Positions 50,767 to 57,652 of a stretch of 57,652 nucleotides of DNA are shown one piece after another. Below the pieces are notes generated by a model. The model made no database searches. It was not told the DNA's origin and saw only the letters and a program-made list of their open reading frames with translations. A program made the translations under genes and the position numbers. The first letter of the stretch is position 1. Each line of letters begins with the position of its first letter. Source of the DNA: an uncultured Acidobacteriota bacterium (lineage in GTDB: Bacteria > Acidobacteriota > UBA6911); NCBI GenBank assembly GCA_964481255.1, contig CAYZTZ010000006.1:1-57652 (forward strand), read 5' to 3'.

Positions 50767-52188
50767 CTAGAGTTTACATTGAGATTGAGTCGGTTTGGGC
50801 ACGGAGCGGCGAAAAAGACCGAGGACGGACAACGCCTGGCGGCCTGGATTGAAAGCCAGCGCGTAGAGCGTCGTCATTATCACGGCCGAGCTGAGACACC
50901 ACAGGCAGGAGGCCCCGATCACGAAGGGCTCGAGAAAGGTCAGATAGGCGGAGAAGAGAGTGCCCAGAGCCGTCATGACCAGGATACATACGGATGCCCA
51001 TAGTGAAATTCGGCCCTTTACCCAGCGGCGAAGCATCCAGGCCGCGTAGATGGCAAGGTAACCGAACAACCCCATCAGGCCGATCGGGATGACGCCGAAA
51101 AGCCTCGCGTACTCGCTCTGCTGAACCGTATTGCAGTCCCCCACGGGTCCGCAGACTGCCTCCACTTCCAGCACTTCCACATGGGCCAGATACGCCGCCG
51201 CCAGCATGCCGACAATCGTCAGGACCGGAGTCGCCCAATCGAGGCGCGGCGCCTCAGGTTTCTCCTCTTTGGGAAGCGGCTTTCTCAGCGACATTAAAGA
51301 CAGCAGCAGTGTCATTAGCATCCCGGCCAGCACCAGAATAGCAAGGCCGTTCCCGTATGGATCCATGAGTATTCGATCCAGCACGCCCATCTTCTTATGG
51401 CCGCCGGTCAGGTCGATGATGCCCGCAGGCTCCGTTTTGGCTGCGGGCTGTGGGATCCCTGCGCCCGAGGCCGTGGATTCCGGGCTCGAAGGAAGTGCGG
51501 ACGGGCCGGCGGCGCTTGTTTGCGGCGGGAATTGAGAGAAACCTGAAGGCGCCGCCTGCTTCGATGCCTGTGCTTTCGGCGCTGAGGATGCGGGCGGCGC
51601 TCCTTCGGGAGGCTTGCCTGGGGCCAAGACAGCGGCCGTTTTGCGTGGTGAACCGGCGGCGGCCCGGGTCACCGGCGCTGCTGAAGGGGCTCCGGTCGAG
51701 GGCGATCCCGCGTGCATCTGCCGGTCTGATGCCAATCCCTGATTTTCCGCGAGCAAGGTCTTGAAACCCGGGATGGGCGGCCAGTCGATGCCTCCCTCCG
51801 AGAGATGTTTCTCAATCAGATCGGGGAATTTCTGCGGTATTTCCTCGGATCCCACCAACGAAGTGTCTCCCACGATGAGCAGGGGCACGGACATCCGCAC
51901 ATGACCGTACCGCATGCATGCGGAAAGAAAAAGATCGCGGCCCGCCGGCGTCGCGGTGCTGATAATGGCCACCTGAAGCCGCGGTCCATAACGCTCCGCG
52001 AGCGGAGGCAGGGTCTGTTCGATGACCTTGGCGCAATGGGAGCAGGTGGGCGAGGCGAAGAGAACGGCGCGCACCGCCGCCGCGTCGTTGCGTGCAGAAC
52101 AAAAGCCTTGCCCTGCGAGCTCCAGCAGAACGGCCGCGGACGCCCAGACGGCGCATCGCATCAAAAAGCTTGTCGCAGACTTAAACAT
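50767..52188 (-). CDS. Thioredoxin-like domain + Pro/Ala/Ser linker + VKOR fusion
   Basis: Signal peptide, PTCSHC, VPLLIVG; VKOR CGPVGDC..V..S and CLWC; start may be 52161. Confidence 0.85.
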   Translation of the reverse strand: MFKSATSFLMRCAVWASAAVLLELAGQGFCSARNDAAAVRAVLFASPTCSHCAKVIEQTLPPLAERYGPRLQVAIISTATPAGRDLFLSACMRYGHVRMSVPLLIVGDTSLVGSEEIPQKFPDLIEKHLSEGGIDWPPIPGFKTLLAENQGLASDRQMHAGSPSTGAPSAAPVTRAAAGSPRKTAAVLAPGKPPEGAPPASSAPKAQASKQAAPSGFSQFPPQTSAAGPSALPSSPESTASGAGIPQPAAKTEPAGIIDLTGGHKKMGVLDRILMDPYGNGLAILVLAGMLMTLLLSLMSLRKPLPKEEKPEAPRLDWATPVLTIVGMLAAAYLAHVEVLEVEAVCGPVGDCNTVQQSEYARLFGVIPIGLMGLFGYLAIYAAWMLRRWVKGRISLWASVCILVMTALGTLFSAYLTFLEPFVIGASCLWCLSSAVIMTTLYALAFNPGRQALSVLGLFRRSVPKPTQSQCKL

Positions 52189-52395
52189 AGGTTCTTTAGC
52201 AACTCAGGGATCATTCCCGGCATCCGCAAACGGCGATCCGCCCACGCACCGGAAGAGTGATTATAGACCAAAGACCCCCGGCAAGCAGTGTCACATAATT
52301 CTCAGGAAAGCCGATTCCGCGGTCCTGCGCGTCGAAGCCGCGGCCCCTATGGAACCGCTCGACCGGAACGAGCGATCCTCGCACTGCCTGCCGTC

Positions 52396-52411
52396 AGGAA
52401 TGATTATTGCT
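52396..52411 (+). promoter_or_regulatory. Weak sigma54 promoter candidate upstream of the cytochrome gene
   Basis: AGGAATGATTATTGCT has GG-N10-GC spacing and a TTGCT -12 element. Confidence 0.3.
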
Positions 52412-52649
52412 TATTCCTCGAGGGCGACTTTTCATAAGGGGATTGTTTTTGCTGATGCGTCAAAGTCTTCAGGCGGAAAAAACGGGGGCTCTCCCTTTTC
52501 TCGATTGTTGGACCGGGCACCAGCCCTCTGGAATGGTGCGATCTTTCGGCACCCGTGGAGCCGCGGCTCGCATCCCCGGCGAATGCGACGGCACGCGCCT
52601 GTCCCGCCCGTATGCGGAATCATCTCGAATCACGAAAAGGTGACTTTTT

Positions 52650-53426
52650 ATGGATAAACAAATGAACCGTCGATCCATTTTGAATCTCGGCGCGGCCGCA
52701 GGCGGCCTCGCCATCGGCGGATCGATTCTGAAAGGGGCCGCGTTCACGGCCGCGGAGAAAAAACCCGGAGCTCGTCTGCCCTGGCCATGGAGGGAAATCA
52801 ATCCCGCCGACATTCAGGAAAGGGCCTATCAGTCGGCCTGGGCGAAAATCGGCTGCATGTACGGCACCGTCGAGGCCGTCATCGGCACGCTTGCGGACAA
52901 ATACGGCTCCCCGTACGATACTTTCCCTGTAGAGGCTACTATATACGGAAGCGGCGGCGTCGGGGGCATCGGTTCGCTCTGCGGCACCATCAACGCCTGC
53001 GGACTGCTTTTCAACCTCTTCACCAGGAATCAGGAGGATCTTTTCGCCCTCTGTCAGGAAATTTCGCTCTGGTATGAAAGCGCCAGGCTCCCGTCCTATA
53101 AACCGAAGAGCCCGAAGCTCGATATCCCGATCGCGCCGTCCGTCGCCCGCTCTAACCTATGCCACGTCTCGTCCACCACATGGGCCAATGTTTCGGGACA
53201 TAAGCTGTTGACAAACCAGCACTTTGAGCGCTGCAACCGCCTTGTCGCGGACGTCGCGATGCAGGCGGTCACCCTGCTCAACCAGTACAGCTCCGGCAAA
53301 GTCCTTTTCAAGGAAAAACTAAATTCCTTTTCGCAGGGCTGCTTGTCCTGCCACGGCCCGGGAAACGCCAAGGCCAATGTCGCCAGCGGCATGAGCTGTG
53401 ATACCTGCCACAAGAATCCCCATTAA
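52650..53426 (+). CDS. C-GCAxxG-C-C family protein, split-Soret cytochrome c-like, Tat-exported
   Basis: NRRSIL Tat motif, GCMYG, GSLCGTINAC, NLCHVS, ERCNRL, two CxxCH motifs (CLSCH, CDTCH). Confidence 0.85.
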   Translation: MDKQMNRRSILNLGAAAGGLAIGGSILKGAAFTAAEKKPGARLPWPWREINPADIQERAYQSAWAKIGCMYGTVEAVIGTLADKYGSPYDTFPVEATIYGSGGVGGIGSLCGTINACGLLFNLFTRNQEDLFALCQEISLWYESARLPSYKPKSPKLDIPIAPSVARSNLCHVSSTTWANVSGHKLLTNQHFERCNRLVADVAMQAVTLLNQYSSGKVLFKEKLNSFSQGCLSCHGPGNAKANVASGMSCDTCHKNPH

Positions 53427-53631
53427 TGGCGAGCCGCCGGGGCGAGCGGCCGGATCCGCGCATTCTATTTTCCGGGGACGCGTCTGCATCGGATAATGTA
53501 TAGTCTAAAGAAACCGCGCAAACGACAGGAAAGGCGGGAGGAACGCGGCATGGCATGAAGTCATGATCGATGGATACGGAGGTATTTCTTTTCCTGTACG
53601 ACGATTGCGATGAACAAGGAGGGAAGCTCCG

Positions 53632-56172
53632 GTGGAAAGTTCTGTTATGGTCATCGGCGCCGGGCCCGCGGGAATGCGGGCAAGCTTGGAGCTTTTGCAG
53701 CAGGGGTTTAGAGTCTGCCTGGTGGAGGAAAAGCCCACGATAGGCGGCAAGATGGCGCAGATAGACAAGATGTTCCCTACCAATGAATGCGCCACGTGCA
53801 CCGCCCTGCCGCGGATGCTGGAGCTCACGAGCAATTCCGACCTCACGCTTTTTCCCTTTACGGACGTCCTGTCCATAGAGGGCGCGCCCGGAGACTTGAA
53901 AGTCAGGCTCCTAAAAAAGCCGCGATATGTGGATCCGGTGAAATGCACGGCGTGCACGGATTGCTTCCCGGTCTGCCCTGTCGGCGGCGTCCCCATGGAT
54001 TTCAATCTCGGCAGAGGAGCATCCAAGGCCGTCTTTTTCTACTCACCCTTTCCGCCTCGTAAAGCCCTGATCGATCCCCGATACTGCAGCTTCATTCGGG
54101 ACGGGAAGTGCGGTGAAATGGATAAGCCCCCCTGTGTGGAGGCCTGCAAGCCCGGGGCGATCGATTTTTCCCAGAAACCGCAGGAAATCCTTCTCAATGT
54201 CGGAGCCGTAATCCTGGCCACGGGTGCGGATGAGATCAGGGACGATACAGTGCTGGGCGGATATGGGTACGGGAAAGCATCCAATGTGCTTACGGCTCTG
54301 GAGTATGAACGCCTGCTGTCCGGCCTCGGGCCAACGAGCGGCGTCGTGAAGCTCGGCGACGGGAACGAACCGGAGAGCGTGGCGTGGGTCGTGCTTGACG
54401 ACTCGTCATCGATAGGGTTCATGACAGCGGCGGCTGAGGCTCTGGGAACCCTGGAAAAGAATCCGAGGGCGGCTGCAACCGTTTTTTGCAGACAGACCGA
54501 TCCCGACCGCGACGCCTACCGCGCTTTCTATTCGAATTGCATGGAAAGGGGCGTCCGGTTCATCCGCGGAGATTCCTTATCTATAAAGCCGGACGGGAGC
54601 GGCGCCGTCCAGATCTCTTATACCTGTGAGGGCCGGAAGACCGGTCTTACGGCGGAAATGCTTGTACTGGTGCCGCCCCTGCAGGCTTCCGAGAGCGCAC
54701 GCAGGCTATTCGAGAGACTCGGCATCCAGACAGACCGGATGGGCTTTGTGAACGCCGCCGACGAAATTTCCCATCCTCTGGAAACGGGCCTCCCGGGGAT
54801 CTTTGTTTGCGGGGCGGCCCGGGGTTCCAGGGGGATCGAGGATTCCATCGTCGAAGCATGTTCCGCCGCCTCCAGGGCGGCGGCCCTGCTGTCTCCCTAC
54901 CGGAGCAAGGAGCGAGCGAGCGCGCCTAAAGCGGAGGCCTTGCCTGTGAAGCCCGAAGATGAGCCTGCTATCGGGGTGGTGATTTGCCGCTGCGGCCTCA
55001 ACATAGCGGGCCTGGTCAACCTGGACGAATTGGCGAGTTTCACCGCGTCCCTGCCCTTCGTGAAGCAGGTTGAGTTGACCCCCTTCGGCTGTGACGGTGT
55101 CTCCATCAAAAGACTTTTGGCGACGGGAGAATTCAATAGGATCGTCCTGGGGGCGTGCTCGCCCAAGACCCATGAGAGGCTTTTCGAACAGCACCTTGAA
55201 TCCGGCGGTCTGAACCGTCAGCTTTTGGAGATCGTGAACCTTCGCAACCACTGCACGTGGGTGCACAGCACGGACAAGAAGGGAGCGACGGCCAAAGCCA
55301 AAACGCTCATGAAAATGGGCGTGAGCCGCGCCGCGCTTCTTGAATCCCTTGCGGATATCGAGGTGCCGGTCACTCAGGTCTGCCTCGTGGTCGGATGCAA
55401 TCCGTCCGGGATTGCGGCGGCGCTGGCATCGGCCGGTATGGGTTATGAAGTTCATGTCGTCGAAAGCGATCCGGCCCCCGCGAAAATGCCGGAAAATCAG
55501 GGAACAAGAGCCAGGGCGCTGTTGAAGGAGCTTTTGGAGAACAGCAAGGCCAAAATCCATGCGGGCGCCAGGATAGCGGCGATAGAGGGTTTTGTCGGCA
55601 ACTACAGCGCGGAAATTGCGGGCCCTGCGGGGAACGTGGAGATAAACGCCGGTGCCGTCATAATTGCCGCAAGAGAAAAAATGGGCCTATCCTCGGATGG
55701 GGAGGATTACGAAAAGGCCCTGGCGATTGCAAGGAGCGAAAAAGGCTTCCTTGTCCCAAGCCTCGGTATATGGAACGTCTTGGATTTCAACACCGAAGGG
55801 GTCTTCCTGTGCGGCCCGGCGCGTGGTGACATGGAGCTGATGGACGGCATTATCGAGGGCGAGGCCGCCGCCTCGCGTGCGGCCGGCATACTTGCCCATC
55901 GGCGGATGGTCAAATCCCCGAGGGTTTCCGTCGTTGTGGATGAAAAGTGCGACGGGTGCGCCTACTGCGTGGATCCCTGCCCCGCGCATGCCATCACGCT
56001 TCTTGAATACATGCATGAAGAGGCCGTCAAGAAAACGGTGGAATCCAACGAGGCCACATGCAGGGGCTGCGGGATATGCATGGCGACCTGTCCCAAGGAG
56101 GGCATATACATAAGGCACTTCAGGCCGGAGCAGTTCAAAGCGATGGTCGAGTCCCTTCAGGAGGGAGCCTAG
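53632..56172 (+). CDS. HdrA-like flavo-iron-sulfur protein (atypical)
   Basis: IGAGPAG, KMFPTNECATC, inserted ferredoxin, HdrA N-domain ICRCG...GACSP...NLRNHCTWVH, C-terminal 2x[4Fe-4S]; GTG start with AAGGAGG RBS. Confidence 0.88.
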   Translation: MESSVMVIGAGPAGMRASLELLQQGFRVCLVEEKPTIGGKMAQIDKMFPTNECATCTALPRMLELTSNSDLTLFPFTDVLSIEGAPGDLKVRLLKKPRYVDPVKCTACTDCFPVCPVGGVPMDFNLGRGASKAVFFYSPFPPRKALIDPRYCSFIRDGKCGEMDKPPCVEACKPGAIDFSQKPQEILLNVGAVILATGADEIRDDTVLGGYGYGKASNVLTALEYERLLSGLGPTSGVVKLGDGNEPESVAWVVLDDSSSIGFMTAAAEALGTLEKNPRAAATVFCRQTDPDRDAYRAFYSNCMERGVRFIRGDSLSIKPDGSGAVQISYTCEGRKTGLTAEMLVLVPPLQASESARRLFERLGIQTDRMGFVNAADEISHPLETGLPGIFVCGAARGSRGIEDSIVEACSAASRAAALLSPYRSKERASAPKAEALPVKPEDEPAIGVVICRCGLNIAGLVNLDELASFTASLPFVKQVELTPFGCDGVSIKRLLATGEFNRIVLGACSPKTHERLFEQHLESGGLNRQLLEIVNLRNHCTWVHSTDKKGATAKAKTLMKMGVSRAALLESLADIEVPVTQVCLVVGCNPSGIAAALASAGMGYEVHVVESDPAPAKMPENQGTRARALLKELLENSKAKIHAGARIAAIEGFVGNYSAEIAGPAGNVEINAGAVIIAAREKMGLSSDGEDYEKALAIARSEKGFLVPSLGIWNVLDFNTEGVFLCGPARGDMELMDGIIEGEAAASRAAGILAHRRMVKSPRVSVVVDEKCDGCAYCVDPCPAHAITLLEYMHEEAVKKTVESNEATCRGCGICMATCPKEGIYIRHFRPEQFKAMVESLQEGA

Positions 56173-56589
56173 ATGGCGAGCGAATTCGAACCGAAGATCC
56201 TGGCATTCTGCTGCAACTGGTGTTCCTATGCGGCCGCGGACGCCGCAGGCACCGCGAGATTCCAATATCCGGCGAACGTGCATATCATCCGCTGCATGTG
56301 CTCGGGAATGATCCATCCGAACATGGTAATGGACGCCCTTACCAAGGGTTTCGCGGACGGCGTGCTGATATGCGGCTGCCATCCCGGAGACTGCCACTAT
56401 CAGACAGGAAATGAAAAAGCCAAGTCGAGGGCGGAGGCGATCTCCCTGATGCTCGGGGATTTTGGTCTGGAGACGGAGCGCTTCAGGCTTGAATGGGTTT
56501 CCGCGTCGGAGGCCTCAAAATTCGCCGCGATAGCGAAGGAGATGACCGAGACGGTTCGGGCGCTGGGCCCGAATGTCTACCGAAGCTGA
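56173..56589 (+). CDS. mvhD: MvhD/FlxD-like [2Fe-2S] subunit
   Basis: FCCNWCSY, IRCMCSG, GCHPGDCHY, RLEWVSASE; AGGAGG RBS. Confidence 0.92.
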   Translation: MASEFEPKILAFCCNWCSYAAADAAGTARFQYPANVHIIRCMCSGMIHPNMVMDALTKGFADGVLICGCHPGDCHYQTGNEKAKSRAEAISLMLGDFGLETERFRLEWVSASEASKFAAIAKEMTETVRALGPNVYRS

Positions 56590-56641: not shown

Positions 56642-57610
56642 TCAGGACCTTGACGCGCGTTTGGATCGCCTCGCGGCGTAAAAAGCGCTTTCTCCCGTGC
56701 GCATCACGGCCGCCTTCCCGGAGGCGACAAGCGCTTCCATGTGCTTCAGCGCCTCCGAAAAGTGGATTCCGAGACTGCGCGCGACATCGGAAGCGGTGCA
56801 GGGCCGCCGTGACAGCATCGAAACGATGTCGTCCCGGACGGATTCCGCTGAAGACATTCTGTGCCCGACGGCCCCCGCGCCGGCTCCTCCTATGACGTCA
56901 ACTTCGCCGGGGAAGATTTCCTTCAGGGCCAGCAGCTGGTTCTTCGAAAGGGGGCCGGCGCAGGATTCCGCAGGGGGCCGGGCGACCGTGTTCAGCTGAA
57001 TGCGCGTCAGACGAATGCGCCGTGTGATGGCGGCAATCTTCTCGACCTCCTGCCGGATTCCCGTAATCCCGCCCAAAAGGAAAACCTCCAGCCAGATCTC
57101 CCCTTTATAAAGATCCGCAAAAGCGGCCAGGCCGTCGACCATCCGCTGGAACGATATTTTCGGGTGCGGGCGGTTCACGTATCGGTAGAGATGTGGATCT
57201 CCGGCATCCAGCGATGGAATCACAAGGTCCGCCGCCATAAGGGCGTTCTGCACGTCCGTATCCCAGAGGAGGGAACCGTTGGTGAGCACGGCCACAGGTA
57301 CGCTCGTCATACCTTTGATCCTGAGGATGAGATCCCCGATGCTGCTGTTGAGGGTCGGTTCCCCAGAGCCGGCAAGGCTTATGTAATCCAGCGCGTCCGT
57401 GCATGCGAGCTTTTGCTCCAACTCGCCCAGAATGTCCGCGACCGGCACATATTCCTTTCGCCGGAGGGTTTTATCCGTAGTCCGGCCCAGCTGGCAGTAA
57501 ATGCAGTCGTAGGTGCAGGTCTTGAAAGGGACAAGATCAATCCCGAGGGATCGTCCCAGACGCCTTGAAGGGACGGGCCCGTAGATATGCCGGAATAGTT
57601 TCTTTTTCAT
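56642..57610 (-). CDS. Radical SAM Fe-S oxidoreductase (COG0731-like)
   Basis: YGPVPSRRLGRSLG, CTYDCIYC, GSGEPTL, LTNGSLL, C-terminal HTH with RRPC. Confidence 0.9.
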   Translation of the reverse strand: MKKKLFRHIYGPVPSRRLGRSLGIDLVPFKTCTYDCIYCQLGRTTDKTLRRKEYVPVADILGELEQKLACTDALDYISLAGSGEPTLNSSIGDLILRIKGMTSVPVAVLTNGSLLWDTDVQNALMAADLVIPSLDAGDPHLYRYVNRPHPKISFQRMVDGLAAFADLYKGEIWLEVFLLGGITGIRQEVEKIAAITRRIRLTRIQLNTVARPPAESCAGPLSKNQLLALKEIFPGEVDVIGGAGAGAVGHRMSSAESVRDDIVSMLSRRPCTASDVARSLGIHFSEALKHMEALVASGKAAVMRTGESAFYAARRSKRASRS

Positions 57611-57652
57611 GATCAGGCCCCGCAGGGAGGCTTGCTGCAACGCTCCTCGCGA

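Follow-up and report, generated by a model that had tools for sequence, protein, structure and literature searches.

A widespread family of fused HdrA-type proteins without the HdrC-facing cluster and the bifurcating-flavin lysine, accompanied by MvhD

The window analysed here, 57,652 nucleotides of DNA from an uncultured Acidobacteriota bacterium, is an entire contig (C6; CAYZTZ010000006.1) of a 3.87-Mb assembly in 266 contigs (GCA_964481255.1). It carries an hdrA-like gene (53632..56172, + strand) that is directly followed by mvhD. We found that the 846-aa product reads as an HdrA dimer fused into a single chain, its second unit reduced, and that it belongs to a family of ~841-aa proteins that is conserved and widely transferred. 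The parts that wire HdrA to HdrBC are lost in this family, and therefore electrons are probably relayed between MvhD and ferredoxin rather than split. The reading that we tentatively favour is an HdrBC-independent HdrA-MvhD relay with two ports, with Mvh on the MvhD side, interconverting H2 and reduced ferredoxin.

Residue equivalences were taken from the ungapped parts of a HMMER alignment to the HdrA chains of 5ODC and 8RVU, with MAFFT used for the remodelled segment. Residue invariance was scored in 70 sequences, and the conservation of each domain was calculated as the mean majority-residue frequency in the family. The protein aligned to HdrA in three ordered stretches. Residues 2-418 correspond to HdrA 151-570 (the thioredoxin-reductase-like (TrxR) core and its inserted ferredoxin domain), residues 442-598 to HdrA 2-160 (the N-terminal cluster domain with the beginning of another Rossmann fold), and residues 688-841 to HdrA 499-648 (the end of the flavin adenine dinucleotide (FAD) domain together with the ferredoxin domain at the C-terminus). 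A first-pass annotation of the window had described a permuted HdrA with an internal N-terminal cluster domain. The domain is indeed internal, but three ordered HdrA stretches in one chain indicate two HdrA units, and therefore the protein is, as judged from the alignment, a fused HdrA dimer in which the second unit is reduced, rather than a circular permutation of one HdrA. The two units are complementary: one has the equivalent of Cys197, the other the N-terminal cluster domain, and unit 2 has no CxxC region.

Unit 1 (residues 1-422; 53632..54897, +) consists of the TrxR-like FAD core and the inserted ferredoxin domain. It has GAGPAG at residues 9-14, the only FAD site that looks canonical. 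The pair C53-x-x-C56 (53788..53799, +) aligns without gaps to Cys194/Cys197 of 5ODC and is invariant in the family, and E226, the equivalent of HdrA Glu356, is invariant in the 70 sequences. The inserted ferredoxin domain (about residues 100-182; 53929..54177, +) has eight cysteines (105, 108, 111, 115, 152, 160, 168 and 172), all invariant or nearly so, which would suffice for two [4Fe-4S] clusters. In both the HMMER and the MAFFT alignments, a remodelled segment, V250-A270 (54379..54441, +; VAWVVLDDSSSIGFMTAAAEA), occupies the place of the QCVGSR...CSxxCC motif and Lys409, where HdrA bears the cluster ligands Cys386/399/403/404. None of the four ligands remains: Cys386 is replaced by L255, Cys403 by G262 and Cys404 by F263, while Cys399 is deleted. 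The equivalent of Lys409 is A268, and this position is A, S or T in 54/54 family members and K in none. Thus the glutamate of the canonical Lys409/Glu356 pair is kept, and the lysine is lost.

The second half begins with the internal copy of the HdrA N-terminal cluster domain (residues 442-575; 54955..55356, +; E 3e-30), with C452, C454, C487 and C509 invariant. It continues into the truncated FAD-type domain of unit 2 (residues 580-760; 55369..55911, +), from which the cluster-bearing subdomain is deleted. The dinucleotide motif there is a degenerate VGCNPSG at residues 587-593 (55390-55410), after which ~170 residues are gone relative to ~1000-aa relatives. Across the family it reads G-(G/C)-(T/N)-P-(S/A)-G, so that 54/54 members have no middle glycine of GxGxxG. 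The C-terminal ferredoxin domain (residues 765-830; 55924..56121, +; PF12838, E 5e-13) aligns to HdrA 540-651 and has two CxxCxxCxxxC motifs whose cysteines are invariant in the 70 sequences. What the first-pass annotation had reported of the motifs, namely the intact GAGPAG, the replaced cluster segment and the degenerate second motif in a shortened domain, was borne out in each case.

An AlphaFold2 model built from an alignment of 70 sequences had a predicted local distance difference test (pLDDT) score of 86.9 and a predicted template modelling (pTM) score of 0.89, with low pLDDT in the segments around C53/C56 and residues 540-544. Residues 1-424 of the model superposed on HdrA 150-576 with a Z of 47.4 and a root-mean-square deviation of 1.9 A over 412 residues at 34% identity, and the best structural matches (Foldseek, VIA-align) were HdrA chains. 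The pTM of 0.89 hints at a confident overall packing, and the two halves would pack as in an HdrA dimer.

To place the protein among its relatives, a protein search was used, which returned more than 100 full-length protein clusters of 836-848 aa with 56-74% identity that share its features, together with a few clusters of 979-983 aa in which HdrA is fused to MvhD. Among GTDB species genomes, the ~841-aa form was observed in metagenome-assembled genomes (MAGs) labelled Thermoplasmatota, Actinomycetota, Aminicenantes, Planctomycetota, Bathyarchaeota and Desulfobacterales, and also in MAGs labelled Acidobacteriota, Gemmatimonadota, Hydrogenedentota, TA06 and others. The remodelled segment has a family consensus of its own (SVAWxVLDxSSPIGFMTAVAEALGT). 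The ~1000-aa relatives show 32-38% identity. Their unit 1 keeps IQCVGSR...CSxxCCMYAxK, lysine included, and their unit 2 has GGGxxGM and its own ~170-residue subdomain with QCVGSR...CSRxCC. In the tree, the ~841-aa proteins form one clade (54/54, support 0.99) on a long stem. The earliest branch of the clade (L027, L028, L042) retains the loop, and its full set of cluster cysteines is already incomplete. The motif losses are therefore family traits that define a monophyletic, multi-phylum clade, and are neither unique nor a sign of decay. The most conserved parts of the protein (0.81-0.86) were the FAD-N part, the inserted ferredoxin domain (0.86, among the highest), the N-type domain and the ferredoxin domain at the C-terminus, and the two remodelled parts, among them the truncated FAD-type domain of unit 2, were the least conserved (0.64). 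No further fusion partner was found: a search among proteins longer than 1481 aa yielded nothing but HdrA-like proteins of ~1500 aa that carry a GltD-type domain (PF14691) and are at most 36% identical. While the plan of a fused HdrA is already known, a cluster-less, lysine-less and HdrBC-free clade is not described in the literature that we searched.

The gene context agrees with an altered wiring, as the first-pass annotation had proposed. The hdrA gene starts with GTG, with AAGGAGG ~9 nt 5' of it, and homologues start at the same aligned position. The ATG of mvhD (56173..56589, +; 138 aa, [2Fe-2S] adaptor subunit; PF02662, E 5e-52) is formed from the base right after the hdrA stop codon. 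Its product scored 175.4 bits against PF02662 (gathering cut-off 22.3) over profile positions 1-123 of 123, which places it in the MvhD / FlpD family. Only mvhD follows hdrA, as had been noted, and the next gene is convergent. A family search of the window proteins found no hdrB or hdrC near the gene. We scored the gene context, with flanks of up to 8 kb, in 32 family loci and compared it with 32 long-type (~1000-aa) loci. In 26 of the family loci mvhD is the next gene, and in others it is fused to HdrA. HdrB/C genes were present in 0/32 family loci vs 12/32 long-type loci, and therefore the loss of the HdrC-facing cluster goes together with the absence of HdrBC.

The earlier statement that HdrBC and MvhAG partners are lacking holds for the locus but not for the genome, which has hdrCB on contigs C32, C84 and C56 and an mvhG-mvhA-hycI operon on C56 with no mvhD nearby. 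Likewise, the partners had been called unknown, which is too strong: MvhD is constant, mvhG-mvhA-hycI comes directly after it in several relatives, and this genome has the orphan mvhGA. It also encodes at least six HdrA paralogues of about 560 to 1526 aa (contigs C56, C73, C84, C114, C165 and C32), seven mvhD copies and several NuoE/NuoF-GltD (Bfu-type) modules. As a separate observation, this set of Hdr-type modules is unusually large for an Acidobacteriota genome.

Given the architecture, motif losses, conservation, clade and gene contexts described above, we infer a cofactor content, an electron path, an absence of bifurcation and the identity of the partners as follows. The FAD site would come from unit 1, as would the Cys53/Cys56 pair and the inserted ferredoxin domain. 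Electrons would move, in either direction, between the [2Fe-2S] cluster of MvhD, the C-terminal ferredoxin domain, the FAD/Cys pair, the N-domain cluster and the inserted ferredoxin domain, and from there to or from a ferredoxin or ferredoxin-like acceptor, most likely along a linear, non-bifurcating path. The protein on the MvhD side would most likely be an Mvh-type [NiFe]-hydrogenase, here encoded by the operon on C56. With Mvh docked, the module would act as an H2:ferredoxin oxidoreductase or, in reverse, as a ferredoxin-driven producer of H2. Both TrxR-domain clusters, which form the high-potential route to HdrC or BamD in HdrA and BamE, are gone, and with them the third exit for bifurcation of the HdrABC type. 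Because there is no third exit and no lysine at the flavin N5, such bifurcation is unlikely. The domains on the proposed path are also the conserved ones, which we count in favour of a relay.

Several observations weigh against this relay between H2 and ferredoxin. The FAD site is strongly conserved, more than a simple wire requires, and Glu356 is retained though its partner Lys409 is lost. Most family loci, the window included, have no adjacent hydrogenase; the MvhA tree has no hydrogenase clade that is specific to the ~841-aa family; and where a genome also has a ~1081-aa HdrA, mvhGA adjoins that paralogue. Finally, the dimer-like packing is presumed, and unit 2 may still carry a FAD.

For the hydrogenase itself, mvhG-mvhA-hycI genes were observed in 4/32 family loci vs 14/32 long-type loci, with more in the partial or separately fetched loci L037, L065 and L101. 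The gene order hdrA-mvhD-mvhG-mvhA-hycI was found in L010, L024, L037, L043 and L101. In a tree of the sequences compared, those nearest to the MvhA of this genome include the one from L024, a Desulfobacterales MAG, where it directly follows an 847-aa HdrA-MvhD. We considered the co-occurrence of MvhA as a family-specific link and set it aside: a close orthologue is present in about 29/34 family genomes, but this is unspecific, and many mvhGA operons of these genomes stand alone or adjoin a ~1081-aa HdrA. A tandem operon was also observed at L010:1-14126, encoding an HdrA of ~1095 aa, MvhD, an HdrA of 842 aa, MvhD, MvhG, MvhA and HycI. L043 is similar, and both operons are preceded by regulatory-type genes (DRTGG, PHP and HATPase). 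In three MvhA orthologues (G013:C30:1674-3104, G022:C175:53823-55253 and G030:C1:1893781-1895226) we found a single in-frame TGA, so these are possibly selenocysteine-containing [NiFeSe] large subunits.

A second set of neighbours recurs in the family. About a third of family loci have neighbours of the orange-protein (ORP) type, namely two MinD-type ATPases with ferredoxin inserts, Mrp, NifX-like, CGGC, DUF5320 and DUF1847 proteins, and some of these match NCBIfam MrpORP. This domain set is that of the ORP complex genes of Desulfovibrio, the function of which is undefined (PMC6345978). The hdrA-mvhD pair lies inside or beside such genes in L009, L012, L018, L026, L031 and L036, and in L026 the neighbours overlap by 4 nt. 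Clusters that enclose hdrA-mvhD were located at L009:892-11871, L018:27-8394, L026:5360-13527 and L031:7-5337. They come from four phyla and include a metallo-beta-lactamase. A Fur-family gene adjoins 7/32 family loci. A classical Fur box (TGATAATCATTCTCA) over a TTGACA-N18-TAAAAT promoter was found in 5/27 family loci vs 0/30 long-type loci, with the box and sigma-70-type promoter at L036:7675-7740, L012:7612-7640, L011:3191-3220, L034:7846-7875 and, 5' of hdrA, in L016. In 5/5 of these loci, three of them labelled Aminicenantes, the box sits between a divergent fur gene and an operon of small protein, hdrA and mvhD.

The small protein of these operons has ~68 aa and is acidic and Cys-free, with the motifs GKKFMWDG and YLVYTRRVVTE and no match in Pfam or NCBIfam. 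In about 20 family loci its gene directly precedes the ~841-aa hdrA, while several other family loci and many long-type loci have it after mvhD. Examples are L036:7795-8001, L011:3291-3497, L012:7795-8001, L017:7795-8001 and, in the present genome, C114:2636-2830. This last copy, the only one in the genome, adjoins a 1006-aa HdrA-MvhD. Modules of fused HdrA-MvhD probably have the ~68-aa protein as their third subunit. Beside the hdrA of the window, ORP genes, a Fur box and the gene for the ~68-aa protein are all three absent.

Other explanations were weighed against the relay. One of them, which we consider unlikely, is Nfn-like bifurcation or confurcation, in which a soluble hydride carrier (NAD(P)H or F420H2) would bind at the unit 1 FAD, in the space that the lost cluster left. 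Of the two one-electron branches, one would be the MvhD/C-terminal ferredoxin chain and the other the N-domain/inserted ferredoxin chain. It would suit the invariance of the FAD site, the Cys pair and the Glu356 equivalent, the two separate iron-sulphur chains that still meet at the flavin, and the lack of an encoded donor enzyme at most loci. Direct access of F420 to the flavin has also been proposed for HdrA2 (PMC12054007). However, the N5 lysine that marks the bifurcating HdrA flavin is never present, and the remodelled domain is weakly conserved, has no dinucleotide motif of the GxGxxG type and matches no nucleotide-binding family. It is less likely again that the module is the electron-input unit of an ORP metallocluster system, where it would supply Orp3/Orp4 by way of their ferredoxin-like domains and, in some lineages, be controlled by iron (Fur). 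The six loci with ORP-type genes, the MrpORP matches, the adjoining Fur genes and the Fur boxes confined to family loci in our comparison speak for it. Against it, the link is seen in only about a third of loci, and the window is not one of them: the orp-like genes of this genome are on other contigs (C119, C175 and C192), no Fur box precedes its hdrA, and the function of ORP is itself undefined. A more specific version, held at the same low level of belief, is that the ~841-aa HdrA, MvhD and the ~68-aa protein form a dedicated reductase that would pass low-potential electrons from H2 or ferredoxin to the ORP complex, Fur-controlled in some lineages.

The family protein might also be an accessory or scaffold subunit in a complex whose core is a different HdrA paralogue, one that is fully equipped. 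The tandem operons of L010 and L043, the convergent long HdrA genes that adjoin the family gene in L016, L032, L034 and L044, and the HdrA paralogues of this genome would fit such a role, but most family loci have no second HdrA, and the protein has kept all of its electron-transfer domains along with an MvhD of its own. We regard this as improbable, more so than either of the foregoing. Last, a decaying HdrA pseudogene or an assembly artefact can practically be discounted. In its favour are the missing canonical motifs and a best NCBIfam score of 529 bits, well under the HdrA2 cut-off of 1100, but the frame is open, the AlphaFold2 model is confident, and more than 100 full-length homologues from many phyla have these changes fixed, with invariant cofactor ligands. 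The unique decay that the first-pass annotation had allowed for as the cause of the losses is thus contradicted, with all 54 members falling in one clade.

We also looked at the genes around the hdrA-mvhD pair. The gene convergent with mvhD (56642-57652, - strand, running off the contig end) encodes a radical-SAM domain fused to a C-terminal helix-turn-helix of the ArsR/HTH_20 type. Upstream of hdrA, the 258-aa product of a gene at 52650-53426 (+) resembles split-Soret cytochrome c, with 155 bits and thus under the cut-off of 400. It combines a twin-arginine signal (NRRSIL) and a C_GCAxxG_C_C domain with two CxxCH haem motifs at the C-terminus. We considered this cytochrome as a direct partner of HdrA, but given its twin-arginine signal it is probably exported, to the periplasm, and not such a partner. 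Further upstream, 50767-52188 (-) encodes a 473-aa protein with a VKOR domain confined to residues 321-445, the first ~320 residues of which match no family. An open reading frame at 52022-52657 looks spurious, as it has an odd composition, overlaps the VKOR gene and has no family match. No sigma-54 promoter was found 5' of hdrA in 53427-53631, and the pattern matched 19 times across the window vs 21 expected by chance.

HdrA is the best-studied flavin-based electron-bifurcating module, and the clade amounts to a natural deletion experiment on it, in which the high-potential exit and the N5 lysine have been taken away, with strong selection still acting on the MvhD entry and on the exit to ferredoxin. 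If the linear link between Mvh and ferredoxin is true, many metagenome calls of 'group 3c hydrogenase plus HdrA' in fermenters may have been misread as bifurcating heterodisulfide reductases. If instead the module is an ORP reductase, two orphan systems of anaerobes would be linked, and the ORP complex would gain a redox input. The recurring association with ORP genes and Fur boxes, and the small companion protein of fused HdrA-MvhD modules, are in any case concrete leads for two systems without an assigned function.

Compared with known systems, the protein shares with the canonical HdrA of MvhADG-HdrABC (PDB 5ODC, 8RVU, 7BKB) the N-terminal, inserted and C-terminal iron-sulphur domains and the MvhD partner. 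Canonical HdrA is a homodimer in which Cys197 completes the N-terminal cluster of the other protomer (PMC9012536), whereas the window protein is a single chain without the TrxR-domain [4Fe-4S] cluster, Lys409 or HdrBC in the locus. Its scores against the NCBIfam models NF041778 / NF040770 were below the curated cut-offs (HdrA2 528.7 bits vs a cut-off of 1100; HdrA 410.7 vs 1400). The sHdr HdrA of Hyphomicrobium denitrificans (PDB 6TJR) has a similar TrxR-type core (Z 36.5), but it has no ferredoxin domains and uses HdrB/C-type subunits, while the window protein keeps all ferredoxin domains with no HdrBC in the locus. Closer in plan are the fused HdrA proteins. HdrA3/4 of anaerobic methanotrophic archaea (ANME) and the HdrA of Moorella have complementary Cys197 and N-terminal domains and are read as built-in heterodimers (PMC9012536). 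Fused HdrA is classed as 'type II', and Lys409/Glu356 are taken as markers of the bifurcating flavin (PMC12054007). With type II HdrA (A3/A4 of ANME and methanogens) and the HdrA of the Moorella MetFV-HdrABC-MvhD complex, the window protein shares two units in one chain and the complementary Cys197 and N-domain. It differs from ANME HdrA3/4 in that the N-terminal domain is on the second unit rather than the first. Type II HdrA is reported to keep K409/E356 in each of its TrxR domains, whereas unit 1 of the window protein has no K409 and unit 2 has a deletion of that region.

The nearest likeness is to BamE of class II benzoyl-CoA reductase, described in a cryo-electron microscopy preprint as a fused HdrA dimer 'with extensive domain permutation' (bioRxiv 10.64898/2026.04.10.717634). 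There, the TrxR1 FAD at the N-terminus is the bifurcating one, and Lys280 lies 3.4 A from its N5; the high-potential electron reaches BamD by way of cluster E4; a route through the Cys59-Cys62 pair and cluster E3 runs to the inserted ferredoxin domain; and a structural role is assigned to the second FAD (bioRxiv 10.64898/2026.04.10.717634). Compared by this published description, BamE of Geobacter metallireducens and the window protein share the N-terminal TrxR1 unit, the CxxC pair (C59/C62; here C53/C56), the inserted ferredoxin domain, an internal N-type cluster domain, a second TrxR-type unit whose role is structural, a C-terminal ferredoxin domain and an MvhD-type adaptor (BamF). The ~1000-aa bacterial fused HdrA proteins share this BamE-like plan as well. 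The differences are that BamE has E4, Lys280 on N5, a second FAD and E7, so that a [4Fe-4S] cluster lies beside each flavin, whereas the window protein has neither cluster, with the unit 1 cysteines lost and the unit 2 subdomain deleted, and has no lysine. Nor are there genes for BamD/HdrBC, BamGHI or BamBC near its hdrA. Measured against the BamE plan, what the clade has lost is precisely the exit for the high-potential electron (the counterpart of E4), together with the lysine and most of the second unit, which is dispensable.

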